From: a virus
Taxonomy: Duplodnaviria; Caudoviricetes
Virus record (IMG/VR): IMGVR_UViG_3300009370_001679
Span: 14,606 to 78,605 of that record
DNA length: 64,000 bases
Reading direction: 5' to 3' (one strand)
In this document: positions 1-64,000 of the stretch, piece after piece
Numbering within the stretch: the stretch's first letter is position 1
How the letters are laid out: every line of letters starts with the position of its first letter
Program-made: the position numbers and the translations under genes
Notes under the pieces: model-generated
Told to the model about the DNA's origin: nothing
Databases searched by the model: none
The model's input: only the letters and a program-made list of their open reading frames with translations

Positions 1-2
1 AC

Positions 3-3000
3 AACCTGATGATGGCGGGCATGGCGGCGGGAATGGTTGCCCAGAGTATGGACGGACTGAACGACAAAACAAAAACTTTCGTGACAGATATTACTATGAT
101 TGGTATGATGTTGGGAATGGTTGCAATGTCCTTTGCTCCTATGTTAAAGGGCCTGTTTATGGTGGCTGGATCTTCGACCACAGCCGCTGCGGCACTTTCC
201 GCACAGACTGCGGCGACAGCTGTTGAAGTTGCGGCATCTGAAGCGGCGACTTTAGCAGATATGCAGAAGGCAGGTGCCGGATTCGCCGCATCCGCGATAG
301 ATGCACAGAAAACGGTTGCCGGTGGTGCTGCTACCATAGCCGATAGACTCAAAGCCCTTGCTGCCGCCGATGCGGCGAAGGCAGATAAAATGAAAGCCGG
401 TGCCGCCATGCTGGCAGGCGGAATTATGGTAGGTCTTGCGATAGCCGCCACTTATGTTATAATGAGAAGTAAGGCGCTTGGTGAACAGGCGAAAAAGCTA
501 ACCGAGGAATATCAAGATTCTATAAAAGAGTTGCAGGAGGGTGGCGCAGGTACGAATCTCGCAGACGCTCAGGCTAAAGTTAGAGCTGCCCTTCAGAAAG
601 AGGCAGAAGCCGCTGGGGCTACATTCAGTGGGTTCGTTTCTGCTATTGCGGCGACTATTGTAGTTATCGCCGCTGCGGTCGGTCTGTTTTTCGCGGGGAT
701 TGCCACGGGCGGTCTGGCTTGGGCGGCTGCGGCAGCCATTTTTATTGCGGCAGCTGGAGTTGCTGGAGCGGAAATGGGGGCGGCGTTTGCAACGGCTGAG
801 GAGGCGATAGGGGCGTCTACTGACGCTTTAGTAGCATCAACGTTCTATGCCGCCACAGCTCTGAACGGACTTACTGCGGCAAACCAAGCTATGGAACTTG
901 AGCAGCTTAGCGGCGTTGCGTTAATGGAGAGACAAGGACAGGCTTTTGACGACTTCTATGCTTCTTCTCTCCAAGCCGCCGGAGCTATGGCGTCTTTTCA
1001 GGGGATGGAAGCTGGTATGGATCAGGAGTTCAGGGGTGAGATGGAGGACTCAGACGTCTTTGAGGCCGTCAAGGATGGTGGGATTGATGCAATGAAGGAG
1101 TTAAGTCAGGCATGGTTTAAAATGGCTTCCGACATGAAGAACGGCATGAATGGCGCTGTAGACGAAATGATCGAAGGTGGCGCGTCTATCAGAGACGCGA
1201 TGGATAGCGCCGAAATACAGGGTCAGCTTAAAAAATACGGAGCTGCTGTCGAGATGGCTACACGACTCCAGATGATGATGAGTGGACTCCAAAAACAACA
1301 AGCCAAACAAGAGTTGGGGCTTGCTGGCATGACAGATGAAGAAATGTCTCGGGCTCAGCGCCTTCAGGTGATGGCGAGGGAAAAAGAGCTTATAGATAAG
1401 GCGTCCGCTGACACAGCCAAGAAAGCGTCAGATGCTCAAGAAAAATCAATGAACGACAGGCTAGAGGCTGACGCAAAAGCGAAAAAGGCTGCGGCAGAAA
1501 AGCTCGCTGCGGACATAGCTCTCGCAAAACAGGCATATCGATCTGCTTTAGCGTTAAGCACGTTTGAGGTTGCCATGGTTGGGCTGAGCGGCGCGATGAG
1601 TATGGCAGATATGGAATTTGGGGCCCTTACTGGCAGTATAAAACAGTTTAAATCAGTTAACGATAAGCTGATTGCCACCTTAGCCTCTGGAAACGTTTCT
1701 CCCGAAGCTGAACAAGCAGCAATGGCTACGGCTGGCCAATTTGGACTAGAGAGGGAGACAGTCGCTCTTATTCAAAAAATGAAAGATAACGAAAAAATAC
1801 GAAAAGTATTGACCGAAAAGGGGATGGAGGCATTTAGTGGAACGCTTGAGGAGAGCGCAGCAAATTTAAGGTTTGATGAATTCATGAGAGATCAGGGTAT
1901 TGATCTGTCTGGACTTGACGCTGACATAAGAGCAGAAATTATGAATATGCTAGAGGATGGGCTTCAGCCGGGCGAGATTGAAGAAATCATGAATAAAATC
2001 AATGGCGCCAATGAAGAGCAGATAAAGGTGCTTGCGGAACTAGCCAAAGCACAGAATGATTACGTTGGCGCCCTGTTTAAATTTGGTGGTGAGGTAGTAA
2101 AGCTCAATGAACTATATGCTAAGGCTATTAGTAATGTAATTAGCGTCCAGCTAAAGGGAGCAGAGCGCCTAGCTAAGGCTCAGGGAAGAGATATGACCGT
2201 GGGAGATGTTAGGGCGGCAGAAGAAGCTAAAAGAAGAGCTCCATTACAGGCAAGAGGTCTTGTTGGAGGTGGAGTCGGCGCTACACAAATACAGCTAGAA
2301 AGAAACAGACAGAAGGCTAGGGATCTGGCCGATAGAGTTAAGGCAGAGGCTGAGGGCGGTCAAGACGCAGAAACAATAACCAAGCTACAAAACGAACAAA
2401 AAGACCTAGCCTCTGAGACCAACGCTCTTACGGCGAACCTTAAGAAACTTTCAGATCAGTCTAAGTTGGCCGCCGCCATTATGGGCGAGATAGATAAAGA
2501 AAAGGGAAAACGGGAGACAATAAGAGGTTTAATCTCCGAGTTTACCTTTGCTAGTAATCAGGGCCGGAAGGATATGGATAGGAATTTCATGGCTCTCCAG
2601 AGGGTGATGGAGACTGGGAGCTTGAATAGTATTCCGGACGAGATGAGGTCTGCTGTTGGAGGGTTATTAGGCACCCTTGAGAATATAGCGATTGGGCCAC
2701 AAGGTCAAACGGGTGGAGAAATCAAGAAGATGCTAGAGATGCAGATGGCTAACCAGCTTAAGATTAGAGCTACTGGTAGGCCGCTTACTGCGGAAGAGAT
2801 GCAGAGAATATTTGATAAAACAACAAAAGAAGAGAAACTTATAGATGACCTAAAAGCTCTTAATGCCGAAGAGGTTGCGGCGGCGACGGCTCTCGCTGAT
2901 CATCAAGCAGATAAGATTGACGACTTGTTGGTGGGAATTGAGAGACTCATTGCAACCCTAGAGGCTGCGCAAGCGAATGCTGGTAATGCGGCACAAGGTG

Positions 3001-34228: not shown

Positions 34229-34229
34229 C

Positions 34230-35006: not shown

Positions 35007-35007
35007 G

Positions 35008-41312: not shown

Positions 41313-41314
41313 GT

Positions 41315-42337
41315 TTATTTCCTGTAATTTTGTATAACGTTAAAAAATTGTTTATTCCAACTCTCAACAAATCGGTCTAGATTGAACTCATTTATAATTG
41401 TGGCTTTTGCGTTGTCTCCCAATCTTCTGGCTTCGTCAGGATTGTTAAGGAGATACTCGCAATGACTCCTAAGCTCATCTTTTGTGTTGCCGAGAAGACC
41501 GTTTTCTCCGTCCTGTATAATTTCGGGTATCATACAGTTGTTGGTGCTAACTATAGCGCACCCGCAAGCCATAGCCTCCATTAATACTGTTGGTACGGGA
41601 GAGTGAATAGATGTGTTCAGAAAGATAGAAGACTTCTTATACTCTTCTCTTAAGACCTCAAGACTGGAAGCGGGTTCAGATAATCCGGGACTGCTGCCAA
41701 GAACTTTTATGGGAAGTTGATCGGGAGAGTTAAATCCAACTGTTTGTTGCCATAGGTTCCAGCCACAGCACCAGTCCCTGTTTGGCCAATCGTTGACTAC
41801 AGATATACAGACATTTTCGCGGTCATATGAATCGCCACCGCTCCAGAAATCAGTATCTATTCCATGTTCAATAAAAGAAGTAGTGTTGGATAAATTTTTC
41901 CCCCATTCCTCCATATTGTATCGAGATATAAAGCTGTCATGATCGACCTCAATAGCATTAAAGCTAGCAATCTGTGAACTAACATCAAACCGAATATCTG
42001 GTAAAACATGTGTGTGTCGCAAGATAGGTATATTGAAAAGCTGTTGAATTTGTTTGGCGGTCATAATTCTTTCGCAGCTTGTGTGGCAAAGAATTAAATC
42101 AAAGTTAATATGCCAAGGCACGATATCAATCTCTTGATAGTTTGTGGGAATTAAGCCATAGTCTGTATTCCATGTTTTTCCATGATTCATAGAATAGAAA
42201 TTATGTCCTGTTTTGCATAGACCCTGTTCGTATCTTTCGTGCGTACAAAATGTCAATATATTAAGCGCATCTCCTTCGCTTAAGGTAGACCTTCTCATCA
42301 TAGACCTTACAGACTGTTGGCTCGCGGTACTACTCAT
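41315..42337 (-). CDS. GT4 glycosyltransferase
   Basis: IEHGID and LMEAMACGCAIVST...IPEIIQDGENG motifs. Confidence 0.85.
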   Translation of the reverse strand: MSSTASQQSVRSMMRRSTLSEGDALNILTFCTHERYEQGLCKTGHNFYSMNHGKTWNTDYGLIPTNYQEIDIVPWHINFDLILCHTSCERIMTAKQIQQLFNIPILRHTHVLPDIRFDVSSQIASFNAIEVDHDSFISRYNMEEWGKNLSNTTSFIEHGIDTDFWSGGDSYDRENVCISVVNDWPNRDWCCGWNLWQQTVGFNSPDQLPIKVLGSSPGLSEPASSLEVLREEYKKSSIFLNTSIHSPVPTVLMEAMACGCAIVSTNNCMIPEIIQDGENGLLGNTKDELRSHCEYLLNNPDEARRLGDNAKATIINEFNLDRFVESWNKQFFNVIQNYRK

Positions 42338-43436
42338 ATAACAACTCCTTTAGTTTTTTGCCAATACACTTTATATCGTATTCTCTAGCCTTAGCCATAG
42401 AATCATCTTTTTTGGCATTGTATTCTTTTGGGTTATTCTTGTAAGTCTCATAAGCCACCCTCATTATAGAGCATAGCGACTCCAAGTCTGGCTCCATCCA
42501 TCTGGTAAGCGATGTATACACACTGTCCATCGAGTCTGTTGCCATGTAGCATGGGGCTGGAGACGATGGAACTTTCCACCCCACACAGAAATCATCCATA
42601 CCAGTATTAGCTGTATGTATAACAGGTATGCCCATAGCCATAGACTCTAGTGCCGGTATGCACCAAGCCTCTCCAAAACTAGGCATAACAAAACAGTCGC
42701 ACTTATCCATCAGTGAGTGTAGGTGCCTACTTTCCAGATGCCCTGTTATAGCAATTTCTTTTCTGTAGTTCTTTCTTATTTTAAGCGCTCGTCTTACATT
42801 GCCTGAAAGGGTGTCGAAATATTTAAGCGTCTCATCGTGACTATATCCCGGCTTACTCAGCTTCAAGAATAGGTTAACAGGTTCTGACGGGTGAAACTCT
42901 GTATGAAAAGCCCGTAACAAAGTTTCAATATTTTTTCTCTTGACCATCTCCCCGACAAAGCAGAAGTTAAAACACCCACTAAACTCCCCTACGTTTGCGC
43001 AGTCTTCTATGTTTTGATAATCTTCCATAGGTAGACATAGCGGTGCTAACTTAACGGGGATTGTTACTCCGCTTTTCTGGGAGGCTGTTATCATCTGATT
43101 GTTAGGAACCCACGCTTCGTCAAGCAAGTTTATATGTTTGTGCCACATAGTCTCTGAAAAAGTCGCTGTTTCAGTATAGAAGATACCTATGTTTTTGAAT
43201 CTTGAGTTGTAAGAGTATAGCGGCGGAAGTGTGTGTTGAATACAAACATCTACGCCCTGTTCGCTCTGCCCCTCTAACTCCGCAATTCTTTGGTTGCTAG
43301 TATTGTGCGAGTCATTAAAGGTGATAGCTCTAGGCACAACATTTACTCCAGCAGAATCTAAAGCCAATATATTATTGAAGCAAGCGTTTCCCCACCCCGT
43401 TCTGTCGTTATAGTTTCCTATATAGAGAACTTTCAT
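42330..43436 (-). CDS. GT4 glycosyltransferase
   Basis: RKNIETLL and DCFVMPSFGEAWCIPALESMAMGIPVI motifs. Confidence 0.85.
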   Translation of the reverse strand: MKVLYIGNYNDRTGWGNACFNNILALDSAGVNVVPRAITFNDSHNTSNQRIAELEGQSEQGVDVCIQHTLPPLYSYNSRFKNIGIFYTETATFSETMWHKHINLLDEAWVPNNQMITASQKSGVTIPVKLAPLCLPMEDYQNIEDCANVGEFSGCFNFCFVGEMVKRKNIETLLRAFHTEFHPSEPVNLFLKLSKPGYSHDETLKYFDTLSGNVRRALKIRKNYRKEIAITGHLESRHLHSLMDKCDCFVMPSFGEAWCIPALESMAMGIPVIHTANTGMDDFCVGWKVPSSPAPCYMATDSMDSVYTSLTRWMEPDLESLCSIMRVAYETYKNNPKEYNAKKDDSMAKAREYDIKCIGKKLKELLYE

Positions 43437-45085
43437 CGTTGCCCTCCTTGGATTTTATTAGCCCTAATTTTTTCCCACTCGTTGTGCATCTCTCTCATTT
43501 TGGCCATATGGGTATATGCCAAGTTGACATCAAACTTACCCCAATTTCTTATGTTGTTGTTGAGGTGTGATTCATTGAAATAGAAATCAACATTTGTACT
43601 ACTAGCGGTACACTTATACGTAATATCCCTCAGTGTTCTTTTCCACATATGGTTGCCAATCCAGTCTGGTCTTCGTAGAACATGACTAAAGAGGAAATCT
43701 ACCTGCTCTTTGATGCTAAGGTTTGGCGGGATTTCAGTAGCGGATGGTAATATTCTTGGAGCGGAAAGCCATGTCTCGGCGTGATTTCTAACTGGCGTCT
43801 TCTCAAAATAATCTGCCCATTTGCTCGCAGTATCATCCCAGCTATATCGAGAAAGCGTGCTCTGCCTCATGTTATAGCCCGCCTGTTTACGTTTTTCATC
43901 GCTGGTATTGTAGAGGTCAGTAATATGCTGTAGCGCTACTTTGTTATCTGGGATAGCCCTATTACACCCCGTCTCACATTCCATTTGAAGGTAGCTTACC
44001 GGAACCTTGAAAGCCCCAATATTGTCTGCGACAGACTGCATAGCGGAATAGTCAACGGTAATGACGGGAACTCCCGACTGAGACGCTTCTAGTTGGGGCA
44101 TGCCAAACCCTTCACTATTTGCATATTGTATATATACATCAAACAGGCTGTATATTTGCGCAAGTTCATCTCTTTCTATTTTATTGTTTATGCCAACAAG
44201 CTCTCTTGTAAAGTTTGCGCACTGATAGCAATGATTAATAACATCATTAAAAAATGAGGCATTAATATGACCGCACTTCTTGCACCTGTATGTAAATAAA
44301 ACCCTATTGGTTAACCCATACTCTTGAAGAAGCTGAGGTATTTCCCAACCAATGTCAGGATAAGATGTGTGGCAATAAAGATATGCATTGGGAGCATCGT
44401 TAGAGTCCAGAAACTCCCTGAATGTTTTAAACAAATCTGGAAACAGTTTTCTTCGCTGGTTCCTCATTACCGTACCAAGAATAAACGAATCTTCAGCTAG
44501 CCCAAAATTTAATTTATGCGAGATCTTGTCATGAACAATATCAAACTCCTGACTAGCACAGGGAGATGCTATATCTATAAAGTTCAAATCTTGGCATTGC
44601 CCTAAGAGAACATCTTTGCCGAACTCGGAGTACGCAAACACGGCGTCTGCACTAGCGAAGGTGTCCATCCACTGGTTGTTTTGGGGGGCGGCGTCTACTG
44701 TCGGCATTATGCACCAATTAAAGAAATCTCGAAACGGAGTTCTTTGCTGGAATTCAAACATCCACCAGTCTCGTATGTCTACAACAAAGTCGGGCATAAA
44801 GTCTAGCAAGACATGATTAAATGTATACTCACCAAATTCATACGATGGCTGTGACTTGTACTCATCCCACTCTGGACTGCCTTTTACGGGCTGGTTTGGA
44901 AATATAGTCCAATTACAGTTCTTGGCCTCTTTATTTGCCCTTGCTTGGTCTACATAACAGGCAAGCTCGGCAACCTCAAATCTAGGGTCTACACTCAGGC
45001 GAGAAAGAACCTCTTTTGTATATACAGAATACCCTGTAGGCAAGAAGTGTCCCTCTGAGCAGAAAAGTATTTTTTTACGTCTCAT
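43433..45085 (-). CDS. GT4 glycosyltransferase with internal zinc ribbon, 550 aa
   Basis: MRNQRRK and SEGFGMPQLEASQSGVPVI motifs; inserted CKKC-x14-CYQC. Confidence 0.85.
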   Translation of the reverse strand: MRRKKILFCSEGHFLPTGYSVYTKEVLSRLSVDPRFEVAELACYVDQARANKEAKNCNWTIFPNQPVKGSPEWDEYKSQPSYEFGEYTFNHVLLDFMPDFVVDIRDWWMFEFQQRTPFRDFFNWCIMPTVDAAPQNNQWMDTFASADAVFAYSEFGKDVLLGQCQDLNFIDIASPCASQEFDIVHDKISHKLNFGLAEDSFILGTVMRNQRRKLFPDLFKTFREFLDSNDAPNAYLYCHTSYPDIGWEIPQLLQEYGLTNRVLFTYRCKKCGHINASFFNDVINHCYQCANFTRELVGINNKIERDELAQIYSLFDVYIQYANSEGFGMPQLEASQSGVPVITVDYSAMQSVADNIGAFKVPVSYLQMECETGCNRAIPDNKVALQHITDLYNTSDEKRKQAGYNMRQSTLSRYSWDDTASKWADYFEKTPVRNHAETWLSAPRILPSATEIPPNLSIKEQVDFLFSHVLRRPDWIGNHMWKRTLRDITYKCTASSTNVDFYFNESHLNNNIRNWGKFDVNLAYTHMAKMREMHNEWEKIRANKIQGGQR

Positions 45086-45554
45086 GTCTTCTTATTTTTC
45101 CTATTGCTGAGTATAGTAAACTATAGTATTCATTCTTTGAGAGGAAAAGCTCTCCGCAAATATCTTTTCTGGTATATCCTCTCGATTTAAAATCCAGTAT
45201 TTTTCTTTCCATCGGTAACAGCTTATTCTTGTACGCGGCTAACAAACTCTGGAACTCCAGCATGTGGTGATCCTCTGTGTATTCAGACGGCGTGGCTATT
45301 TCTAGTTTTGATAGGCTCTGCCAGTCGCTCTCTTTCTTTAGAAATTTTATTAGGTGGTTTCTAACAGAGGAAAACATATAATTCCTGAGTGGGCCAATTT
45401 CAGCGTCATAATTTTTAATTGCCTGTAGGGAGCCCAAAAAAGCAACCTGAAGCAAGTCCTCAAACTCATAAGATTCAGACTGATCATTAAACTTTGTAAC
45501 AAGATATATAATTACATCTAGGTTGTCGTCGATGCTCGCTTTAGTTCTGATCAT
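45075..45554 (-). CDS. Phage sigma-70-family (ECF-size) sigma factor
   Basis: Region 2 (EDLLQVAFLGSLQAIKNYD...VRNHL) and region 4 HTH (LLPMERKIL...GYTRKDICGEL). Confidence 0.75.
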   Translation of the reverse strand: MIRTKASIDDNLDVIIYLVTKFNDQSESYEFEDLLQVAFLGSLQAIKNYDAEIGPLRNYMFSSVRNHLIKFLKKESDWQSLSKLEIATPSEYTEDHHMLEFQSLLAAYKNKLLPMERKILDFKSRGYTRKDICGELFLSKNEYYSLLYSAIGKIRRHET

Positions 45555-45914: not shown

Positions 45915-45943
45915 ATTATAGCCTATTATTACGCTTGAGACAC
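45915..45943 (-). promoter_or_regulatory. Possible promoter upstream of ssb-sigma-glycan operon
   Basis: Perfect TATAAT (45915-45920, - strand) in the intergenic gap; only a weak -35 (GTGTCT) at 17 bp. Confidence 0.4.
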
Positions 45944-47482
45944 TTTGTTAATGACCAAACTTGTATCTTTTTTGCTGGATACTTGACCAAAGGCAACAAT
46001 TGTATTGCCTTCATATAGAATTTCCTTGAATTTGCCATATGTCTCAGGAAATATAACGGCAGAGTCAAGGGTTGCTGTAGAGTCTTCCACCGACAAGAAA
46101 GCCATAATCTGGCCCGGATTTTTACCGTTCTTTGTGGCATATTCTCGCAAGGAGTTTATATGGATTGCTACGTTTACCTTGCCCGTTCTACCGTTAACTA
46201 TCTCTTTACATGTACAATTAACCGCCGCACTTTGTATGGCATCAGTTTTGGAGAAGGTTAGCGCCACGCCCATATATTTGTTTTCTGCATCTGCAATCCA
46301 GTTAGGGTGGTCAGTAAGGTCAAACGGCGGAGACTCGATAATATTTCGGACATCAAACACTTTGATTAGTCTGTTAGAATTTATCTTTAGGTTATTTATC
46401 ATGTTATCTATAGCGGCAATTATAGAATCGTCTGGATTGTAGTTATTAGACAGCCATTCTCTTTCTCTAATGGACAAGTCTCTATAGCTCTTGTATTCAT
46501 AAAGAAGGGCATTTCTATGTTTAGTATTATTTTTACCATTAAAAGCGCCAACAGTAATGAGTGCCTCAATGCATGTCTTGTTTACTTTTAGACCTAAATT
46601 AAATAGAGTGTCTAACCAAGTGAACTCAGCAAAAGTTTTGCCTAGCTTTTCTTCTAGCTCTGGAACCAAATCCAACATCTTCTTGGTTTCAGCCGTACCA
46701 ACACCTTTAATGTTTGTAATGCCAAAGTATATATTGCTTTCTGCCGCAGTAAAGGATGGATAGAAGTGCCCTAGTCTGGGAGGTAGGGTCTCTATGTCAT
46801 ATAGCTTTGCGTCAGACACAAGCTCTTTGATTTCCACCTGTTGGTCGGGCTTTCTTTCTGAGTGATTGAGGTAAGACTCAAAGAACCTCATCTTTCTGTG
46901 AACCTTACAGTATGCACTTCTGTAGGCGTTAACAGCATAAGAAACAGCATGAGATTTATTAAACGCATAGCGATTAGATTTTTCAATCCAGCCAAAAATT
47001 TCTTCCGCTATCTCTTTATTAAGACCCTCAGTGCTTGTCACTCCAGACAGGAAAGATTTTTTAACCTTTGCCATCAAGCCCGCTTTCTTCTTACCGATAG
47101 CCTTACGGAGGTTGTCCGCTTCTTTTAGATCGAATCCAGCAAGCTGCTGGGCAATTTTCATGGACTGCTCTTGGTATACAAGAACCCCATAGGTTTCACT
47201 AAGGATTGGCTCAAGGCTCGGATGAAGATATTTGACTTCATCAATACCAGCTTTCCTATCTACGTAGTGCTGAGTCATGGACTTGCCCTCAGTAAAAGCC
47301 TTTAGACAGCCGGGCCTAATCAATGAAATAAGAGCCGACAGCTCTTCTATGCTACGAGGCTTAACTCGCCTCGCCCAAGACCTACCAAGTTGAGACTCTA
47401 GCTGGAATACCCCTTTGGTTCTTCCGTCGCAAATCAAGTCCCACACTTTGTCATCATCAAAATCGTCAATATTAAATATCAT
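45929..47482 (-). CDS. dnaE: DNA polymerase III alpha, C-terminal half (fingers, HhH, OB)
   Basis: GVFQLES, LIRPG, ETYGVLVYQEQ, LRKAIGKKK, YAFNKSHAVSY, IKGVG and MAFLSVED motifs. Confidence 0.92.
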   Translation of the reverse strand: MIFNIDDFDDDKVWDLICDGRTKGVFQLESQLGRSWARRVKPRSIEELSALISLIRPGCLKAFTEGKSMTQHYVDRKAGIDEVKYLHPSLEPILSETYGVLVYQEQSMKIAQQLAGFDLKEADNLRKAIGKKKAGLMAKVKKSFLSGVTSTEGLNKEIAEEIFGWIEKSNRYAFNKSHAVSYAVNAYRSAYCKVHRKMRFFESYLNHSERKPDQQVEIKELVSDAKLYDIETLPPRLGHFYPSFTAAESNIYFGITNIKGVGTAETKKMLDLVPELEEKLGKTFAEFTWLDTLFNLGLKVNKTCIEALITVGAFNGKNNTKHRNALLYEYKSYRDLSIREREWLSNNYNPDDSIIAAIDNMINNLKINSNRLIKVFDVRNIIESPPFDLTDHPNWIADAENKYMGVALTFSKTDAIQSAAVNCTCKEIVNGRTGKVNVAIHINSLREYATKNGKNPGQIMAFLSVEDSTATLDSAVIFPETYGKFKEILYEGNTIVAFGQVSSKKDTSLVINKVSQA

Positions 47483-48156
47483 TCAACTTCTTCCCACCTT
47501 GCTGTAAATTCCTTAAATTCCTTTTGTAGCCCTTTTATCGTCTGATTATCAAATATATTTTGAGCGGTTTTAGGTTCTGGATTTTGAATATGGGCGCCAT
47601 GAATCCCAGACTTGTCATCAATACAGCTAAAATCATTACCGATTTTTGCTTGAATACCCCGATGAGAACTTATGGAAAAATCTCTTTCTATTAAATCTCT
47701 ACGCTCTTTATCTATGGTGCTATTGAAACGATTCTCTAGCTTTTTAAAAATATAGTCAAAGTTATTCCAAAAGGATTCATACTTAAGAATAACAACATCT
47801 TTACCATCATCGCGAATAGAGTCAACAAACTCCCAAAAACTACGATGATGGCCTAAACTCTCATGGCAAACAGGCATATGTTCTTCTTGCTTCTTTTTTG
47901 AAATTCTCACAAGAGAAGCCGCTGTATCTATAGGGTTTCTTATAGTGCATATAGCAGGTAACTCTTTGGTGGGAAAATGACTAACCCCCTGAACCCTACA
48001 TCCAAATACCCAAATATTATAGTCGATTGGATGGAAGTAGTGAACTTCAGAAAAAACATTTCTTAATATTCTATTTACTAACGTTGACCCGCTACGAGAG
48101 ATTGACCACTGTAAAACCGTTTTCTCTATGATAGGATTAAACGTAGAATTCGCCAT
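47479..48156 (-). CDS. Sulfotransferase-fold protein
   Basis: SRSGSTLV (5'-PSB loop), IRNPIDTAAS (3'-PB) and LKYE motifs; start uncertain (48156 or 48174). Confidence 0.7.
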   Translation of the reverse strand: MANSTFNPIIEKTVLQWSISRSGSTLVNRILRNVFSEVHYFHPIDYNIWVFGCRVQGVSHFPTKELPAICTIRNPIDTAASLVRISKKKQEEHMPVCHESLGHHRSFWEFVDSIRDDGKDVVILKYESFWNNFDYIFKKLENRFNSTIDKERRDLIERDFSISSHRGIQAKIGNDFSCIDDKSGIHGAHIQNPEPKTAQNIFDNQTIKGLQKEFKEFTARWEEVE

Positions 48157-48826
48157 TTGCAAATGCTTTCTCAAACTTAGTCTTCTGTGAAATGTTTCTT
48201 TGAAACTTCAGGAACTTAATGAGGATATTTGCCGTATCCTTTACGTCTTGAAGGGCGTCGTGAGCGTTCTCTTTGCTCTCTTCTGGGAATCCCATATACT
48301 CTCGCAGGAAGTCCATGCTGATACTCTTAAAGTCTCGATTGTTTTCTGTCCAAGAGAATACCATATCCATCAAGTCGAGCTTGAAGATCGGATTGAAGAT
48401 AGACTGCCGACCTCTAGTATCGGTAGTGCCGTACATCTCGCACATTCTCTGAGCAATAGGTAAGTCAAAACCAATAATATTATATCCAGCGGCTATAGGT
48501 GCAGTATAAGACGAGCCTCTGAAGTTGAACTTATTACAGAAGTCCTCAAACTTTTTCCATACTGTTTTTGGCAATGGGGCTTTAGCAAGAGCTTTTCTGT
48601 TCTTGCCAGTAATCTCTAACGCTTCCTCCTCTAGTGGGTCAACTCCGGCTTCAATAGCTTTCTTATCGTCAATGATAGGTCTAATCTCACTATTAAAAAT
48701 TCCGCCCGGCTGAATTGTTAGCTTACGCCCGTGTAGAGCGATAGCCGCAATCTGTGTTGGTTGTGTTGTGAGCGGGTTTCTAGAGCCTGTCTCAAAGTCA
48801 AACACAATTATATCTCTAAAATTCAT
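48137..48826 (-). CDS. DEDDh 3'-5' exonuclease (DnaQ/epsilon-like)
   Basis: VFDFETG (Exo I), AGYNIIGFD (Exo II) and HDALQD (Exo III). Confidence 0.88.
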   Translation of the reverse strand: MNFRDIIVFDFETGSRNPLTTQPTQIAAIALHGRKLTIQPGGIFNSEIRPIIDDKKAIEAGVDPLEEEALEITGKNRKALAKAPLPKTVWKKFEDFCNKFNFRGSSYTAPIAAGYNIIGFDLPIAQRMCEMYGTTDTRGRQSIFNPIFKLDLMDMVFSWTENNRDFKSISMDFLREYMGFPEESKENAHDALQDVKDTANILIKFLKFQRNISQKTKFEKAFANGEFYV

Positions 48827-49050
48827 TTAAGTGATCCTTTTAATTCAACAAACTTGTTAACAGCTTCATCTATGTCTTTAAAGATTTCGCTATACTTACA
48901 ACGAGGGTTATCTGAGTGTACCTGATAAGCACCAGTAACATACCCTTTATATTGTGGTAGAAAATGTCTCAAATCGCACAAGCTTATGCTTTTAGATTCA
49001 ATGGCGCAGCCAGAAAAAATGACCGACTTGTAATCCCGCTTAATACTCAT
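48823..49050 (-). CDS. Hypothetical protein, 75 aa
   Basis: Translationally coupled between dnaE-N and the exonuclease. Confidence 0.6.
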   Translation of the reverse strand: MSIKRDYKSVIFSGCAIESKSISLCDLRHFLPQYKGYVTGAYQVHSDNPRCKYSEIFKDIDEAVNKFVELKGSLK

Positions 49051-49052
49051 TC

Positions 49053-50630
49053 TTACTCCTTAATTTCCATGATTTTACTAAGTAGGTCAATACCCAGTAT
49101 ATCAAATTTAACATGTCCTTGATCTTCTAAATCGCCCATTTCAAAACCGGCGATGAGATTTTTACTTTTATCTTTAACCATAGGACAAACTTTATTTAGT
49201 TTATTTGCTGATATAATAACTCCAGCAGCGTGTTTCCCTTGAGATTTTATCGTACCTTCAATGTCAATTGCTTGCTGAAAAATTGCTGCGAACGGGCCAA
49301 CTAGATCATTATCACTATTTAGCTTACACCACCTATCTAGAACTTCTGGCTGATAAGCAAGTGTCCATCGAATTAGTGAGCCTTCACCGCTTTCCTCTAA
49401 AAGGTCTGAAACGTCAGCCTCATTAGGTATGTTTTTAGTCACGTCGTTCATCTCTCCAAAAGAAACGGCGCTATTGATACGCATGATTTCCTTAAGGGCT
49501 GCTCGACCCTGTAGCTTATTGAATGTCAACATTTGGGAGACGTTATCTTCTCCGTATTTAGATTTAATATATCCAATAACTTCGTCTCGCTTTTCGGCAG
49601 GAACATCTAGGTCAATATCCGGAAGAGATACATGACCCTCAGTATTACGGCCAGCATTGTAAAATCTCTCAAAGATTAAGTCATACTTGATAGGGTCAAT
49701 TTCCGTAATACCGATAAGGTATGAAATCAAACATCCGGCAGCCGACCCTCTTCCCGGGCCCGGCAACCACCCCTCAGACCTAACATAATTAACAATGTCT
49801 TGAACAATCAAAAAGTACCCAGAAAGACTAGCATCAAAAATTACACTCATCTCGTTTTTAATTCTTTTTAGGTATTCCTCTTTCTTATCTTCGCTCTTAA
49901 CAACACCAGTATCCTCTAAGAGCTTCTTCCAGCCCTCTCTACAGAGCTGCTTTAAGTATTCGTCTTCGGTGTACCCTTCTGGACAATCGAACGCGGGGAG
50001 CATTGGGCTACCGAGAATGTCATACTCTTCACACTGGTCAGCGATCTCTAGACTGAGCTTTATTTGTTCTTCACTATAAATCTTTTCAACTTCACTCGGG
50101 TTCGGTAGATAGTGTCCGTCACTCTTAAAGAAGGGCTTCAGGTGCTTAAACGAATCAGAAACGATTTTGTCTTTAGCCTTTTTCATGCTTGTTTTCATCC
50201 CTGAGCATAAGAGTATTCTATGTAGCTCTGCGTCTTTGGTCGCTACATAATACGCCGGTTTTTGTTTTAGGTCGTCAATACATATAAGGTTTTCGTCTAG
50301 GGACGTCTTTAACAGTTTCTTCACTACGTCGTCAGAATACGTGTTCTTCTTAGAAACAATATCAATGAGCGCGTACCAGCCGTCTTTGTTCTTTGCTATA
50401 TATGTCTTGCTCTTGTGGTTTTCAAACTCAACAGTGCACCCCATAATAGGTTTAATGCCATGCTTTTTACATTCTTTGTAAAAATTGACAGCCCCAGATA
50501 TAGTGTTAATATCTGTAATAGCACAGGCCGGATAGCCGTACTCTTTACACTTAGCTGCTAGCTCATCAGGTTTCGAGAAACCTCTCTGTAGGCTAAAGTG
50601 CGTCTTGTTATTTAGTGGAACCCAAGTCAT
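49053..50630 (-). CDS. dnaE: DNA polymerase III alpha, N-terminal half (reduced PHP, palm, thumb)
   Basis: AITD, GPGRGSAAG, FERF, PDIDLD, GKHAAGV and KFDILG; all three catalytic Asp positions are present. Confidence 0.92.
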   Translation of the reverse strand: MTWVPLNNKTHFSLQRGFSKPDELAAKCKEYGYPACAITDINTISGAVNFYKECKKHGIKPIMGCTVEFENHKSKTYIAKNKDGWYALIDIVSKKNTYSDDVVKKLLKTSLDENLICIDDLKQKPAYYVATKDAELHRILLCSGMKTSMKKAKDKIVSDSFKHLKPFFKSDGHYLPNPSEVEKIYSEEQIKLSLEIADQCEEYDILGSPMLPAFDCPEGYTEDEYLKQLCREGWKKLLEDTGVVKSEDKKEEYLKRIKNEMSVIFDASLSGYFLIVQDIVNYVRSEGWLPGPGRGSAAGCLISYLIGITEIDPIKYDLIFERFYNAGRNTEGHVSLPDIDLDVPAEKRDEVIGYIKSKYGEDNVSQMLTFNKLQGRAALKEIMRINSAVSFGEMNDVTKNIPNEADVSDLLEESGEGSLIRWTLAYQPEVLDRWCKLNSDNDLVGPFAAIFQQAIDIEGTIKSQGKHAAGVIISANKLNKVCPMVKDKSKNLIAGFEMGDLEDQGHVKFDILGIDLLSKIMEIKE

Positions 50631-51117
50631 AATTCGTAAATTCTTTCAATTCTGATATAGCAACGTTGTGGCAATCTGCCCGAACAACGAACCCGTTAGA
50701 CGGGTCAACCTGTCCTTTGGTTAGCTTTCGAGCTCTTTTGAAATATTCATCGTGCTCAAGCCACCCAAGAACCCACGCTCTTCCCCATCTCTTATTTTTA
50801 TTTTCTATTCTAACAAATACATACCTATCGCACTTTTGCTCGGTGTTAAAGTTTGCAACAGAGCAATCATAATATGGTTTTGGCGGAGACGTGCACCTTT
50901 TAGTTTTAACATCATATTTAATTCCGCTTTTTGAAACAACGTCATAGTCATATGTATTACTTATTGTACCATCAATAACTACATTTGCAACCTCTTCCCC
51001 CAAAAAACCTGCAATATTTCCGTCACCCTTCATTATAGAGTTACGTATTACGCCCATTTCACGGGATTTAGCCCAAGCCTGCTTCTTCATTTTTTCTGTA
51101 ATTTTTATCTCAATCAT
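50608..51117 (-). CDS. Putative PD-(D/E)xK nuclease-fold protein
   Basis: GFLGE...YDYD...YDVKT pattern. Confidence 0.5.
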   Translation of the reverse strand: MIEIKITEKMKKQAWAKSREMGVIRNSIMKGDGNIAGFLGEEVANVVIDGTISNTYDYDVVSKSGIKYDVKTKRCTSPPKPYYDCSVANFNTEQKCDRYVFVRIENKNKRWGRAWVLGWLEHDEYFKRARKLTKGQVDPSNGFVVRADCHNVAISELKEFTNYDLGSTK

Positions 51118-52127
51118 CCCGGCGCCTCATAGTGTCCAATACTGAAACCTTCTTTAGTGCAATTCTGAACGGTATCCATCATACCAAACTGCTCTAGGTT
51201 ATTGCTTACATGTCTACATATATTCTCGTTAGTTCCGGGCCAATCCTTTTTACAGAAATCACAAAGCTTCGTACACTTCCAGTGTGCCTGTCTTCTGGAT
51301 AGCATTTTTGGGTTAGTCGTTTTTTTGATTTCTTCAAATCTATCTTTCAGCATACCTAAGAACTTCTCTTTGTCTGACTCTTCAAAGCAGATACTAAATG
51401 GCCCACCATCGCGTATATAAAATATCGACATGATAGCATCCTTGTATTCAGGAAACTTTTTAGATATAGCATAATAATAAAGCATCAGTTGAGGGTCTTC
51501 GCATAGCTTTTCGTATGTCTTCTCTTCTCCTGTTGCCCAGTTTAGCCTTCTCCCTGTTTTCCAGTCAATGACCTCAATGACACCATCATCAATTTCTGTC
51601 ACTAGGTCGATAGTACCCTTAATGGCTAGTTGCCCTTCTAGAGTTTCCCCGTCTTCTGTTTCATATGAAAATTTTGCCCAGTCTTCCTCAATCTCAATAT
51701 CAAAATGAGGCTCTGATGCGACAATATTTCTCTTTCGCGGGTCGAAATTTCCGTCGTCGTATAACAAACCTTCCCAAGTCGTATCTTCACAGAACTTATA
51801 GTCAGCATTTGTATAATGATGAGTGCAGTTCTCTGTGTAGTGTTTATAGCTTCGTTTGAGAATCTCGTTTACAAATTTCTTTGTGTTAAGTTTCCTCTTG
51901 GTGAATTCTATTTTTCCTAATGCGTCATCATTTAATACCATCTCATCCTTGTCTTGTAAAATCTTTTTACACCCACCTAGCACCTCCATGACCTTGTGGA
52001 CGATTGTTCCCAGCTGGGCTTTTTTACCAGAGACACTTTGATGGCCTAAGACATAGGTTATAAAGTATTGCATCTGACAGTATTCAAAATTATTATAACT
52101 AGAGCTACGTATATACGTTACTAACAT
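51114..52127 (-). CDS. PD-(D/E)xK exonuclease (RecB/AddB/Cas4-like) with probable Fe-S cysteines
   Basis: C near the N-terminus, GTIVH, KGTIDL, IDWKTG, QLMLY and C-terminal CTKLCDFC. Confidence 0.8.
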   Translation of the reverse strand: MLVTYIRSSSYNNFEYCQMQYFITYVLGHQSVSGKKAQLGTIVHKVMEVLGGCKKILQDKDEMVLNDDALGKIEFTKRKLNTKKFVNEILKRSYKHYTENCTHHYTNADYKFCEDTTWEGLLYDDGNFDPRKRNIVASEPHFDIEIEEDWAKFSYETEDGETLEGQLAIKGTIDLVTEIDDGVIEVIDWKTGRRLNWATGEEKTYEKLCEDPQLMLYYYAISKKFPEYKDAIMSIFYIRDGGPFSICFEESDKEKFLGMLKDRFEEIKKTTNPKMLSRRQAHWKCTKLCDFCKKDWPGTNENICRHVSNNLEQFGMMDTVQNCTKEGFSIGHYEAPG

Positions 52128-52128
52128 A

Positions 52129-52956
52129 TTATTCCTTAATCTTTTGGATGCCACCTAGAAGATTTGGGTCTTCTGTAGGGGGCGTAGGACTGGGTTCCTC
52201 GATAACGCTACCGAGCCATCCCCATTCTTCAAGTAAAGATATTACCTTCACATTCGTTTCCATTAAAGATAACTCCTTGTTGTCAATAATGGCGTCGTAT
52301 TCAATGTCATCAACAGAGGACTCGCTAGAATGACTGTCGCCATTTATACCGCGAGTTAATTTAATAACCTTACCTCCGGCTTTTTGTATTGCTTTTGATT
52401 CGTTTGGAAATCTACAGTCAGAGATTACAGCCATTAAAGAACCCTCTTCTCTAATACTTCTCATAGTTCTATCTGTCCAAATGTCCGTATAGATATGCCG
52501 ACAAATATCTGTACCAAAGACCTGTAAAAACTCTCTAGCGGTCATTCTACCTGTCTCGCCTCCGGTATAACCCGGCATGTCTTCCCATTTAATCCATGTA
52601 GGGCTATTTTTATCCGCGTCTGTTCCGTAACACTGTTTCTTTGTTAGTCCAAATAATCCACACGCAATCTCCTTAAGAGAAGCGGCAAAGGAATAGTGTT
52701 TTACAAATGGCCACATGTTGTGTGCGGCCCAAGGTGCAAATTCTGGGTCAGTTCTAGTTACGTCTAAAACACCTTTACCTGTTTCTTCTACTCCAGAGGC
52801 ATCAGAGTCAACGGTATCTACAACAATCCTTCCCTCAGTGTCTAGGTCAAAACCTTTAATAATGTGATAAGACCGCATTTGATATCCGTGCAGAAAGGCA
52901 CAGCACGAATTTTTACCTGATTGCTTTTTTCCGGCAAAGGCTAAGATTCTTGTCAT
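52129..52956 (-). CDS. Deoxynucleoside monophosphate kinase
   Basis: GKKQSGKN P-loop, SFAASLK, REFLQVFGT and ISDCRFPNE. Confidence 0.85.
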   Translation of the reverse strand: MTRILAFAGKKQSGKNSCCAFLHGYQMRSYHIIKGFDLDTEGRIVVDTVDSDASGVEETGKGVLDVTRTDPEFAPWAAHNMWPFVKHYSFAASLKEIACGLFGLTKKQCYGTDADKNSPTWIKWEDMPGYTGGETGRMTAREFLQVFGTDICRHIYTDIWTDRTMRSIREEGSLMAVISDCRFPNESKAIQKAGGKVIKLTRGINGDSHSSESSVDDIEYDAIIDNKELSLMETNVKVISLLEEWGWLGSVIEEPSPTPPTEDPNLLGGIQKIKE

Positions 52957-56663: not shown

Positions 56664-57130
56664 TAATAATTTCTCCTTCTTCCTAAATCTTGCAGGACTG
56701 TAGCCATCTTCTTGACTATATCAATCTTTCCTGAAATTCTTGTTATTCTAGATTCTGCTGATGTCTTTAATCTGTTCAGCTCTGAAGCTAGTGGGTTTTC
56801 TTTTATTGCGGAAAAATATCGGACTTCCCATTTTGCGTACTGCCCGCCATAGTTCTCCATTTTGTCTGCGACTATGTACCAAATGCTGTTATTGCAAAAG
56901 TCTAATACTGACTTCTCTTTATTATATAGTGACTGGAGGTATTCTGCATGCGCAAAAAGTATAAAACTGTTGGATAAAGCCAAAGTAATATCCATATTAT
57001 TGATATCATCGGAACTTAAGTTTAATATACTTTCTACATCCTCATTCTTCTTAACAAGGTCTGCATTTCTATCCTCTACCCAGTCGTCTACCTTCTGTAG
57101 AAATTCAATAGCTTTTTGTTCGTTAGTCAA
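56663..57130 (-). CDS. Helical protein, possible UvsY-like recombination mediator
   Basis: 155-aa coiled-coil two genes downstream of recA; assignment rests on size and context only. Confidence 0.35.
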   Translation of the reverse strand: MTNEQKAIEFLQKVDDWVEDRNADLVKKNEDVESILNLSSDDINNMDITLALSNSFILFAHAEYLQSLYNKEKSVLDFCNNSIWYIVADKMENYGGQYAKWEVRYFSAIKENPLASELNRLKTSAESRITRISGKIDIVKKMATVLQDLGRRRNY

Positions 57131-57536
57131 ACTTCACTCTCCACTCAGGCTCTTTCTCATTATAATTTAGTTCAATCAAATTCATGTTATTCAATTCACA
57201 CCAAGCCGCTTTGTCTGTATCTCTAGCCTTTGCCTTAAAAAATGCCATCTTGTCTTTATAAAAAAAGGAGTTAAACTTAAAGTGCTGCTCTCCATGAACC
57301 TCAACAATTAAACTTCTGTTTGGTATGTAAAAATCAGCATGTAGTAGTGTTCTTCTAGAGCCCGTCTTGGTTCCGGGAAGTGTTAGCTCTTCTAGCACTC
57401 TATCAAACGGAAACAAGTCCTTTAGGAGTGCTCTTGCCTTAATGTGTAATTTTGATCTATTTTTATCTGCAACAGAGGACTGTCTTCTAGATGGGTTCCA
57501 TTTGTGTTCTTTCCCGTCTAGACCTAGAATAATCAT
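57123..57536 (-). CDS. Vsr/DUF559-like endonuclease
   Basis: ADFYIP...IVEVHGEQH...RD..K...C motif. Confidence 0.7.
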   Translation of the reverse strand: MIILGLDGKEHKWNPSRRQSSVADKNRSKLHIKARALLKDLFPFDRVLEELTLPGTKTGSRRTLLHADFYIPNRSLIVEVHGEQHFKFNSFFYKDKMAFFKAKARDTDKAAWCELNNMNLIELNYNEKEPEWRVKFD

Positions 57537-60706: not shown

Positions 60707-60738
60707 ATTCACTCCGCAACAAAAGGTATGTCTATGAT

Positions 60739-60767: not shown

Positions 60768-60769
60768 GA

Positions 60770-61057: not shown

Positions 61058-61082
61058 TTACTCAGTCCTTATTTTAATGTTG

Positions 61083-61793: not shown

Positions 61794-61816
61794 TAATTAT
61801 ATGCTCAGTTAAAGGT

Positions 61817-62089: not shown

Positions 62090-62090
62090 G

Positions 62091-62732
62091 TTATCTCCTT
62101 TCGTTAAAAGATTGTGCTGAACCTGTTGAAAAATTAAAAGTGTGAACTTTTCCAACTCCCATCATTATAGGAGTGTTGGGTGTTGTTATCCTCACGTATC
62201 TGCGGTCTGCGGATACAATAGGGGACACCGATAAGCTGGCCCCCTGTGGAAGTATAGATATAATAGGGTGATACCCAACCCCTCTTTGCCCTAGAGTAGG
62301 TGTTCTGTTAAACATTAGGGCTTTCCTGTCTCTAGCAAGCTCTCGTGTCGCAGGAGTATCTTCTAGGCTATTGAGCTTTTCCCTGAGAGACAACTCTCTT
62401 TCTTTTGGGATATATCTCTCAACCTCTAACATTATTCTCTTCATCTCTATTTCGGGAGTTTTATTGGATTGCATGGCTATCTTAATCCCCTCCCTCATCC
62501 ATGGCTGAGTCTGCCCATTCCTCATAGCAAAAAGCATTATATCAATAGAGTCCTTGACAAGAAGCTTGGCCTGCTCAACCTTCCCTTGGTTGTACAGGTT
62601 GTGAGCCTGAATCATTTTAAGTTGAACGGTAAGTCTTACCTGTTCCTTGCTTTGTGGTTCTTGTGCGACTAGAGTAGTCGAAAACAAAACCATCCCCAAG
62701 AGGATTAAAGATTTCTTAATTATACCTATCAT
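62091..62732 (-). CDS. Secreted protein with Planctomycete-type VSADRRYVR motif
   Basis: Signal peptide (MIGIIKKSLILLGMVLFSTTLVA) and C-terminal GYHPIISILPQGASLSVSPIVSADRRYVRI. Confidence 0.65.
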   Translation of the reverse strand: MIGIIKKSLILLGMVLFSTTLVAQEPQSKEQVRLTVQLKMIQAHNLYNQGKVEQAKLLVKDSIDIMLFAMRNGQTQPWMREGIKIAMQSNKTPEIEMKRIMLEVERYIPKERELSLREKLNSLEDTPATRELARDRKALMFNRTPTLGQRGVGYHPIISILPQGASLSVSPIVSADRRYVRITTPNTPIMMGVGKVHTFNFSTGSAQSFNERR

Positions 62733-63943
62733 GCAAACAGCTCCTTGATAACTTTGCCACTGTTGGCAATCTTCATAGGTCTTCCGCTATTGCTAGTAAA
62801 GGTTGTACTCAAAGAAATGCCTAGCGCTTTGCAGACAGATGCCATAACATCCTGAGATGTATAAGGGTCTGTTATAACCTTGGTGCCATCATCGCTTGTT
62901 GCTCCTACTGCAATGCCGCCATTCATGCCTGCTCCACCAACCACGACGCTCCAACTACGAGCCCAGTGATCGCGACCGGCGTTTCCATTGATACGAGGAG
63001 TACGGCTGAATTCACCCATCCAGATAATAGCCGTATCTTTTAACAACTCTCTTTGTTCAAGGTCTTCAACCAGCGCACTCATCCCTTGGTCGAGTACGGG
63101 TAGTTTATTGTCTTTAAGTGTCGGGTGGATATTTTGGTGATTATCCCATCCTCCTAAATTAACTTCAATAAAGGGAACTCCAACTCCGACAAGCCTTCTT
63201 GCCATTAGGCAGCCCTTACCAAATCCATTATCTCCGTATCTTTCTTTAACGGGTTCAGGTTCGCCTGCAATCTTAAAGGCCTCCATCTGCTCGCTTGTAA
63301 GAAGATTAAACGTTTGCTTTAATACCGACTGGTGATCCTTAGCAAGAGAGCCTCTTTTCTGATTAATGAAATTACTTTCTATGAGGTCAAGAGCATAAGC
63401 TCTCTGTATAAGTCTTTCGTCCACCTTCATATCTAGGTTTCTTATTCTACCATCACTATTGACAGAAAAGGGATTATATTGGGCGCCAAGAAAACCTGCC
63501 CCCATACTACCTCCTCCGACAGTAACAAACTGAGGTATTTCAATATCGTCTCGTCGCAACTGATGAGACAGCAAAGAGCCATAGCTAGGGTGTTCAATAG
63601 ATGGGTTAGGAACATAGCCCGTATGCATATAGTATCGTCCTCGCATATGGTCTGCCTCGCGAGTACTCATCGACCGAATAATAGCCATGTTGTGCATCTG
63701 CTTGGCCATCAATGGCATGTGCTCGCAAATCTGGACATCTCCTGTTGTGCCAATTGGTCTAAACGGCCCTCCGGTTGCGGCGTTTGGTTTTAGATCCCAA
63801 ATATCCATAGTAGACGGCCCTCCACCCATCCATAGTAAAATGGCGGATTTCCCATTTTTCTTTATCTCTTCCTGATTAGCTTTTAGGGTTTGGAGAAGCC
63901 CAAGGACACCAGCGGTGCTCGTTAAAAATTCTCTTCTTTTCAT
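62729..63943 (-). CDS. DUF1501 family protein with Tat signal
   Basis: MKRREFL twin-Arg signal, LWMGGGPSTMDIWDLKP, CLMARRLV..GV.F, GWDNH and GEFSRTPRIN...GRDHW. Confidence 0.88.
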   Translation of the reverse strand: MKRREFLTSTAGVLGLLQTLKANQEEIKKNGKSAILLWMGGGPSTMDIWDLKPNAATGGPFRPIGTTGDVQICEHMPLMAKQMHNMAIIRSMSTREADHMRGRYYMHTGYVPNPSIEHPSYGSLLSHQLRRDDIEIPQFVTVGGGSMGAGFLGAQYNPFSVNSDGRIRNLDMKVDERLIQRAYALDLIESNFINQKRGSLAKDHQSVLKQTFNLLTSEQMEAFKIAGEPEPVKERYGDNGFGKGCLMARRLVGVGVPFIEVNLGGWDNHQNIHPTLKDNKLPVLDQGMSALVEDLEQRELLKDTAIIWMGEFSRTPRINGNAGRDHWARSWSVVVGGAGMNGGIAVGATSDDGTKVITDPYTSQDVMASVCKALGISLSTTFTSNSGRPMKIANSGKVIKELFA

Positions 63944-64000
63944 TATAACTCTTCCTTTAAATTAAATAATTAATTCTTGTCTTACTTTACCGCCGTCTAT

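Follow-up and report, generated by a model that had tools for sequence, protein, structure and literature searches.

CCWGG is absent from an uncultured marine tailed phage and from nearly all informative phage loci carrying a candidate solitary restriction-type nuclease

In phage T4, the DNA of which contains hydroxymethylcytosine, endonucleases II and IV attack non-self DNA, as do viral nucleases in the restriction-modification systems of chloroviruses, and chemical modification shields the virus's own DNA. When a restriction site is missing altogether from a phage, this is usually taken as escape from a host enzyme, and sections of Rusinov et al. (2018, PMC6286503) deal with such site avoidance in non-temperate double-stranded DNA phages. 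A restriction endonuclease without a methyltransferase is also on record: passages of Ershova et al. (2012, PMC3488263) describe PacI of Pseudomonas alcaligenes as a solitary restriction endonuclease whose host is without its sites. For the BisI family, which includes NhoI and Eco15I, parts of a further paper (PMC11347163) give PvuII as the closest canonical relative and an active site composed of a helix Glu, the Asp of a PD motif, and (D/E)xK. Here we report on a 64,000-base stretch of DNA (the window), bases 14606-78605 of the linear 78,605-base IMG/VR virus record IMGVR_UViG_3300009370_001679 (G000; CheckV completeness 51%), which is part of a large uncultured marine tailed phage, the record being about half of the genome. 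The word CCWGG is absent from the window, and a gene in its replication operon encodes a 169-amino-acid protein that is a candidate CCWGG-directed solitary nuclease. Across phages, this one small gene near-perfectly predicts the CCWGG-free state.

The proposed role of the protein resembles that of the T4 and chlorovirus nucleases, namely a virus endonuclease acting against non-self DNA; there, however, base modification protects the virus, whereas no modification genes were found in the records searched here and the absence of the site would protect. As in the site avoidance treated in the sections of Rusinov et al., a palindromic word of the Type II kind has been lost by synonymous changes, other palindromes have been purged, and neither a DNA methyltransferase nor a hydroxymethylase family was found in the records searched; the difference is that the purged word here goes with a gene that the phages themselves carry, in unrelated phages and hosts, and not with a host enzyme. 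The candidate shares with PacI, as described in the passages cited above, the lack of a methyltransferase and a carrier genome without the recognition site, which for the candidate is a proposed one. PacI, however, belongs to a cell and is of the HNH type, and its 8-bp AT site is rare anyway in a GC-rich genome, so that its absence costs almost nothing. The present candidate, known as a sequence and a structural model, is carried by phages, and about 100-390 copies of a 5-bp word have been removed from each genome and kept out. NhoI, Eco15I, and PvuII are the best structural matches and resemble the candidate in their small length (about 150-170 amino acids) and in the helix-Glu/PD-Asp/(D/E)xK layout of the active site, but no sequence similarity was found by a profile search of the PDB, and neither GCNGC (278 observed/260 expected) nor the PvuII site CAGCTG (18/19) is avoided here. 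A solitary enzyme of the restriction type, carried by a phage that is immune through genome-wide loss of a 5-bp word, would be new; a literature search of main texts, mostly from outside the subscription journals, found no paper on a phage-encoded CCWGG nuclease or on self-avoidance of a phage restriction enzyme.

Neither CCAGG nor CCTGG occurs in the window, for which 98.5 sites (standard deviation 8.6) were expected from 100 dinucleotide-preserving shuffles, and 77.7 and 98.3 sites from maximal-order and order-1 Markov models, respectively. An initial annotation, made from the letters of the window, had noted an apparently complete avoidance of CCWGG where dozens of sites would be expected by chance, and both parts of this statement proved right (0 versus 78-98). 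The absence extended to the whole record, with 0 sites versus 97.1 ± 7.9 (minimum 73) in 1000 synonymous-codon shuffles within genes (74 open reading frames, ORFs). Among all words of four to six bases, which the initial annotation had proposed to count against Markov and codon-shuffled expectations, CCWGG was the most depleted in the window (z = -8.8). The depletion was specific for W: the observed-to-expected ratio (O/E) of CCWGG was 0 and not near 1, whereas CCSGG occurred 59 times in the window and 71 times in the whole record (55 expected from the codon shuffle and 70 from the Markov model), and the O/E of neighbour word classes was 0.81-1.30. By the threshold used for restriction-site avoidance, a compositional bias of less than 0.1 relative to an expectation that takes composition into account, CCWGG is an avoided site. 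Furthermore, the 6-bp palindromes GCCGGC, CTGCAG, ACTAGT, GTCGAC, CCTAGG, CTCGAG, CCGCGG, CGTACG, TTCGAA, and GGATCC were at zero in the window, and GATC, GGCC, and GGWCC were depleted.

The absence of CCWGG is kept by synonymous recoding in all three reading frames. In the record, all 62 Pro codons before GGN were CCC or CCG, whereas 647 of the other 944 Pro codons were CCA or CCT; the initial annotation had given the same pattern for about 50 Pro-Gly dipeptides, and each of the 12 positions then given as examples has a CCSGG at or within 1 base. None of the 102 Ser, Pro, Thr, and Ala codons preceding TGG or AGG ended in C, and no CAG or CTG codon had both C before it and G after it. A dense example of the recoding is included in Table 1.

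Five related records (474 kb) contained 0 CCWGG versus 541 expected. Nucleotide identity to the window's record was about 92% for G001 and about 72% for G002, and the other two belonged to a group with about 80% DnaE identity. Other palindromes were also purged from the 474 kb, namely GGATCC (1 observed/46 expected), CTCGAG (1/41), GTCGAC (1/37), and CCTAGG (0/33). Aligned positions of the window's record that are one substitution short of CCWGG were examined, and the rate of the site-creating base was compared with that at other sites of the same class. The creating base was found 19 times at the 1444 such positions aligned with G001 (48.4 expected) and 40 times in G002 (79.4 expected), and no site was formed in either genome, as a second difference inside the 5-mer blocked the site in all 59 cases. 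Because every site-creating change in these two relatives was paired with a blocking change, the conclusion that the absence of CCWGG is under continuing selection at silent sites is well supported.

We next turn to the relationship between CCWGG and the family of the 169-amino-acid protein. IMG/VR was scanned with three sub-alignments (A3, near; A4 and A5, distant), as one broad alignment of 59 sequences was too diverse for this purpose, and every viral locus was classified with the family hidden Markov model (HMM); loci with a CCWGG expectation of at least 5 were regarded as informative, and distant-DnaE loci without a family member served as controls. All of the 63 informative carriers found with A3 were free of CCWGG (0 observed/879 expected), and so were the 29 of a close, DnaE-based set (0/357), all of them consequently having an O/E below 0.2. 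With A4 and A5 (GC 0.25-0.62), 103 of the 106 informative carriers had no site and all 106 had an O/E below 0.2 (7/1617). Over all carriers, with GC contents of 25-62%, CCWGG was thus missing from 195 of the 198 informative loci and the O/E was below 0.2 in 198 of 198, whereas none of the 91 informative controls was without the word and 4 had an O/E below 0.2 (1635/1783). When the carriers were dereplicated at 70% identity of the family protein, 34 of 36 informative clusters had no site and 36 were below 0.2 (Fisher test against the non-dereplicated controls, P = 1.5e-27); at 50% identity, the corresponding numbers were 11 and 13 of 13 clusters (P = 3.5e-13 against the same controls). Among short palindromes, only CCWGG was purged in 36 of 36 carrier lineages and yet rarely in controls (4 of 91).

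Repeated tblastn searches found family members in the same 3 of 50,697 GenBank phage records each time, and all three records are CCWGG-free: Ruegeria phage RpAliso (OR257569.1; complete, 149,362 bp, 61.4% GC) has 0 sites versus 326-386 expected, MW202701.1 has 0 versus 57-65 in 50 kb, and MW202481.1 (complete) has 0 versus 31-39. The flanking genes vary, being those for DnaE and a Cas4-like nuclease in the window, MazG and RNA ligase in RpAliso, and ribonucleotide reductase in MW202701.1; therefore, the element shared by the carriers is the family gene itself. The carriers include the phage of Ruegeria, an alphaproteobacterium, and phages from a freshwater spring. It is well supported that, across hosts and base compositions, only genomes devoid or nearly devoid of CCWGG have an intact family member. 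In the records of the four CCWGG-poor control loci and one more, which are 15-77% complete, the family was not found.

Several observations on other words accompany these counts. The 50 kb of RpAliso examined also lack CCGCGG, CCCGGG, CTCGAG, GGCGCC, GAGCTC, CAGCTG, and GCCGGC, and the annotation of this phage lists a small DNA methyltransferase (RPALISO_15), integrases, and an immunity repressor. Some carriers are free of CCNGG altogether, with both CCWGG and CCSGG at zero (MW202481.1 and the groups of loci L347, L365, and L374). One nuclease subclade (L374, L365, and L362) unites three such lineages and would fit co-variation of the nuclease with the CCNGG-free state, but it was not counted as evidence, because CCSGG is also lost in non-carriers: it is at zero with normal CCWGG in the distant DnaE loci L044, L046, L047, L048, and L050.

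The gene for the 169-amino-acid protein lies between the Cas4/RecB-like nuclease gene and the N-terminal DnaE gene. In an alignment of 21 homologues, E41, D59, D69, and K71 were invariant (D69-V-K71), and the catalytic pattern E-D-[DE]-K was present in nearly all of about 220 family ORFs. An AlphaFold2 model of the product had a pLDDT of 83.5 and a pTM of 0.80, and its best Foldseek matches in the PDB were NhoI and Eco15I of the BisI family, followed by DpnI and PvuII (E 2.7e-6 for NhoI; TM 0.43-0.45). The conserved residues fit the active-site layout given in the relevant parts of PMC11347163. A PADLOC REase_II match was weak (E 1.7e-4, 19.5 bits); no Pfam, PHROG, or NCBIfam match was obtained. 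A homodimer prediction (score 0.00, mark 0.42) spoke neither for nor against a dimer. These results indicate that the product has a predicted restriction-endonuclease fold with an intact catalytic E-D-(D/E)xK motif. Its likeness to the BisI family is one of fold only, as the profile search found no sequence match to that family and its target GCNGC is not avoided.

With at least 1597 representative clusters (E ≤ 0.001) in a library of public metagenomes clustered at 50% identity, the family is large, and it is almost absent from cultured phages. No name was obtained for any of ten distant family representatives for which one was sought. A distant bacterial homologue of 199 amino acids occurs in Vibrio aquimaris (L463, NZ_CP045351.1 64086-78424), 1.85 kb from a C5 cytosine methyltransferase gene in divergent orientation; this proximity fits an origin from a restriction enzyme. 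At this locus the homologue is preceded by an unannotated ORF of 480 codons, and CCWGG occurs five times in the first 5 kb and not in the 9.3 kb from position 5009 onward. A 148-amino-acid ORF in the syntenic slot of locus L033 was considered as a family member and rejected as unrelated (hhalign probability 0.3%).

The simplest account of the association would be an action of the enzyme on CCWGG, under which no genome could survive with both the gene and the site. We accordingly favour, with somewhat more confidence than doubt, a coupled explanation in which the phage's own CCWGG-directed solitary nuclease, as predicted from the sequence and the model, now enforces the avoidance. For this explanation we infer an active enzyme, its CCWGG specificity, its biological role, and the following order of events. 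Restriction of CCWGG by a host would probably have started the purge; the nuclease could have been acquired only by a genome already purged; and it would now add a second, absolute penalty on any new CCWGG. The enzyme would cut host DNA or the DNA of competing phages, its own genome being immune through absence of the site and not through methylation. Unmodified CCWGG would be the favoured target; the methyl dependence of the enzymes with the nearest solved structures makes C5-methylated CCWGG the alternative. Chances appear evenly balanced for the wider proposal that the proteins form a widespread and not previously described phage-borne family of CCWGG-specific solitary restriction endonucleases, which serve as weapons against the host or co-infecting phages and from which the phage protects itself by a site-free genome.

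Self-avoidance of a phage nuclease that cuts host DNA had been one of three causes considered by the initial annotation, with genes starting at 27819, 50608, and 57123 as candidates. On comparative grounds this cause is now strongly supported, but for the gene at 50608 only, given its predicted fold and the occurrence of its family in CCWGG-free phages only; the other two are HNH homing-endonuclease-like and are kept in the site-bearing relative G005. The genes at 27819, 57123, and 51114-52154 are not linked to the avoidance, because their orthologues are kept in G005, which has 85 CCWGG; the last of the three probably encodes a recombination exonuclease.

If the gene product does cut CCWGG, phages carry solitary restriction endonucleases to which they are immune for want of a site, and enzymes of about 165 amino acids make up a new family of CCWGG endonucleases; part of the "restriction-site avoidance" in uncultured phages would then be self-avoidance, and the pairing of an orphan nuclease family with a purged word would be a general route to specificities from metagenomes. 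If it does not, the case is a very clean but ordinary restriction-site avoidance. The association makes a story about hosts testable, for example through RPALISO_107 (OR257569.1, 73614-74168) of the cultured Ruegeria phage RpAliso.

Several points weigh against this explanation. The association is an incompatibility between a gene and CCWGG and not a mechanism, and the controls were drawn with a single marker gene and not dereplicated. Carriers strongly avoid many palindromes in general, and a shared lifestyle could confound the association. Three carrier loci have residual CCWGG, namely L356 (2 observed/12.7 expected), L357 (4/25), and L379 (1/14.8). Modified GCNGC is the target of the enzymes with the nearest solved structures, yet this word is unavoided in G000 as given above, and the TM scores are moderate; a search of PDB sequences with the family profile returned nothing, including no BisI-family chain. 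The records of the immediate clade are incomplete (51-71%), and a methyltransferase could sit in unsampled DNA. Furthermore, the relative G414 (155,259 bp, CheckV 100% complete) has 0 CCWGG versus 181 expected and no family member in a search that included a six-frame HMM scan at E values up to 10, and in the sister lineage of G307 and G414 all 30 loci are CCWGG-free (0 versus 302). As to the residual sites in L356 and L357 (3580, 5935, 14654, and 15519), three of the four stand in an ACCWGGT context.

As G414 has lost the sites but does not have the gene, the gene is dispensable for the purge, which in the window's clade probably came first. G414 thus favours, in this clade, acquisition of the gene by already purged phages over a purge driven by the gene; the original cause would then be host restriction or an unrecognised agent. 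No MvaI_BcnI, EcoRII-C, or C5 methyltransferase gene was found in G414. The relative G005 (94% complete) is without the family and has 85 CCWGG versus 176 expected, although a quick DnaE tree places it inside the CCWGG-free clade; it has regained CCWGG sites, which accords with the association of family and word. Besides CCWGG, no word was found that is purged in the carriers but not in G005 or G307, and G307 is CCWGG-free too. The sites of G005 are unevenly distributed, with 11 versus about 71 expected at 50-130 kb (the replication and glycan arm) and 74 versus about 101 elsewhere. In G005, which is the record of locus L037, a C5 cytosine methyltransferase gene adjoins that of a 243-amino-acid protein with a sub-threshold match to the UpaP162 family of Type II restriction enzymes (L055, 847-2671).

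The alternative that survives best is ordinary site avoidance only: host enzymes of the EcoRII, MvaI, or BstNI kind would drive the purge, and the nuclease would have another job, for instance in recombination or repair, or another target and co-occur with the purge through ecology or ancestry. We regard this as possible but rather unlikely as the whole explanation, whereas escape from host restriction, another cause considered by the initial annotation, is probably part of the story. The purged G414 and the 30 loci of its lineage, all without the family, fit such escape, as do the purge of other restriction-type palindromes in the clade and the depletion of GATC, GGCC, and GGWCC. Other lineages likewise purge other words, as seen for CCSGG in the five distant DnaE loci named above and for GCGC in G005 (0 versus 98 expected). 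According to sections of Rusinov et al., roughly one in ten prokaryotic viral genomes has lost a site completely or almost so, which mostly concerns non-temperate double-stranded DNA phages and orthodox Type II sites, and CCWGG methylation has been detected in marine viral metagenome-assembled genomes (MAGs) according to part of another report (PMC9516812).

Contigs of the phage clade were binned with Flavobacteriales twice, once through a protein named for an Ulvibacter sp. MAG and once through L077, a contig of 96% identity that belongs to a Flavobacteriales MAG, and these two independent binnings make Flavobacteriales a weak lead to the host. A search of this order for EcoRII-like genes, as the initial annotation had suggested for candidate hosts, gave EcoRII-C in 2 and MvaI_BcnI in 10 of 301 sampled genomes over the cut-off, so that families with known members that cut CCWGG or CCSGG do occur there. 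These families are, however, rare in the order (0.7% and 3.3%), and in 50.6 kb (ten contigs) of the candidate-host MAG, CCWGG stands close to its normal frequency (47 observed/60 expected). No EcoRII-C was found in the MAG holding L077, and the nuclease family was not found in those searched of 401 sampled genomes of that MAG's order. The carriers, from GC-poor to GC-rich and including the Ruegeria and freshwater-spring phages, are too diverse for one common host system, yet 198 of 198 are depleted versus 4 of 91 controls; with gene neighbours so varied, the family gene itself is their common element.

Very improbable is an explanation by biased repair, in which the 169-amino-acid protein would be a sequence-specific, Vsr-like mismatch or nicking endonuclease working in reverse, nascent CCWGG would be converted, and the purge would be a by-product of repair. 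Vsr, too, resembles restriction endonucleases in its fold and works within a CCWGG context, and both the association of family and motif and the paired changes are also compatible with directed conversion; nevertheless, Vsr is not among the Foldseek matches listed, the conversion would need to be essentially perfect where about 2850 CCWGG were expected in carrier loci, and G414 is purged without the gene.

Deamination, the third cause considered by the initial annotation, by which Dcm-type methylation in the host and then loss of C5mCWGG without very-short-patch repair would have eroded the sites to CTWGG and CCWAG, has a practically negligible chance of being right: these words number 273 versus 242.6 in the codon shuffle (O/E 1.13, z 2.5), but an excess of about 30 words compares with about 97 missing sites, which are distributed over all neighbour classes (ACWGG/CCWGT, O/E 1.13, +37; TCWGG/CCWGA, 1.10, +32; CCSGG, 1.30), the 62 Pro-Gly pairs were retained with CCS codons by synonymous W-to-S changes where C-to-T would yield Leu, mutation bias leads to depletion and not to 0 of 541 over 474 kb, and the 19 and 40 creating-base cases blocked by a second change indicate selection or something acting like it. 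CCTAG, CTAGG, CCAAG, and CTTGG had been called plentiful, which holds for their counts (37, 32, 76, and 72, respectively) but not in the sense of a special enrichment.

Among genes that bear on the coupled explanation, DNA methyltransferases of PF00145 and PF01555 were not found in G000-G004, nor those of PF02086 in G001-G004 (G000 was not searched for PF02086); in these records, which are 51% (G000) and 55-71% (G001-G004) complete, no cognate methyltransferase was thus found encoded as in an orthodox Type II restriction-modification system. The thymidylate synthase/dCMP hydroxymethylase family was not found in G001-G005, which gives no hint of DNA modification of the hydroxymethyl type. Phage-encoded EcoRII-C (PF09019) was not found in G000 and G414-G418, nor phage-encoded MvaI_BcnI (PF15515) in G414, G415, G307, G005, and G001. 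The positions of these and the other features are given in Table 1.

Table 1 Features of the window (positions are those of the window).
Feature	Position	Strand	Remarks
Three giant ORFs in series (3575, 3034, and 1260 amino acids)	1-21337, extending 3.8 kb upstream of the window	+	
HNH endonuclease-like gene	27819-28589	-	PHROG 559/9084; G005 orthologue 44% identity
Glycan gene cluster, about 18 kb	29038-45085	-	Glycosyltransferases and sugar-nucleotide enzymes
Sigma-70-family factor	45075-45554	-	Region 2
DnaE C-terminal gene	45929-47482	-	Finger and HhH
231-amino-acid ORF	47479-48174	-	
RNase T-like exonuclease	48137-48826	-	Between the DnaE halves
DnaE N-terminal gene	49053-50630	-	PHP and NTPase
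Recoding example in the DnaE N-terminal gene	49753-49763		Three CCSGG in 11 bases (49753, 49754, 49759)
169-amino-acid PD-(D/E)XK protein	50608-51117	-	PvuII/BisI-like predicted fold; candidate CCWGG-directed solitary nuclease
Cas4/RecB-type PD-(D/E)XK nuclease	51114-52154	-	Pfam PDDEXK_1 E 1.8e-20; PADLOC Cas4 models
HNH homing-endonuclease-like gene	57123-57536	-	PHROG 9084/559, E about 1e-14; G005 orthologue 41% identity
DUF1501 (sulfatase-like) gene	62729-63943	-	Conserved clade core gene

The 74 ORFs called occupy 98.5% of the record, and complete relatives are about 155 kb long. No close relative was found among the 50,697 GenBank phage records by megablast with 12 kb or by tblastn with the 1260-amino-acid protein, for which the latter search gave no GenBank phage homologue. 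The three giant ORFs diverge between relatives far faster than the replication genes. Upstream of the window region, relatives have terminase and capsid protein genes; downstream, they have genes for ribonucleotide reductase, radical-SAM proteins, and sulfotransferases, and three more DUF1501 genes.

DnaE is split over 45929-50630 on the minus strand, and a 75-amino-acid ORF also lies between its halves. The 231-amino-acid ORF looks like a recent insertion, being missing from G001 and G002. The minus arm further encodes a deoxynucleoside monophosphate kinase, primase, DnaB, RecA, and PhoH. No tRNA from which a host might be inferred was found in the window, and the DUF1501 homologues gave no clue to the host, as their lists were filled with relatives from within this clade, on contigs of as much as 171 kb.

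The glycan cluster contains at least nine glycosyltransferase (GT) genes (GT1/4, GT2, GT10 fucosyltransferase-like, GT25, and GT47-like), together with genes for a DegT aminotransferase, an NAD epimerase/dehydratase, a nucleotidyltransferase, an FkbM methyltransferase, and DUF6492; the virion, the host surface, or DNA could be the target. In G002, extra glycan genes encode another epimerase, PAP2, a sulfotransferase, a double radical-SAM/SPASM protein, and GT4 (L063, 406-9695). The sigma-70-family copy of the same relative (L063, 11574-12017) has region 4 too, and four DUF1501 genes are clustered there (L063, 18760-19998; L064, 571-3592).

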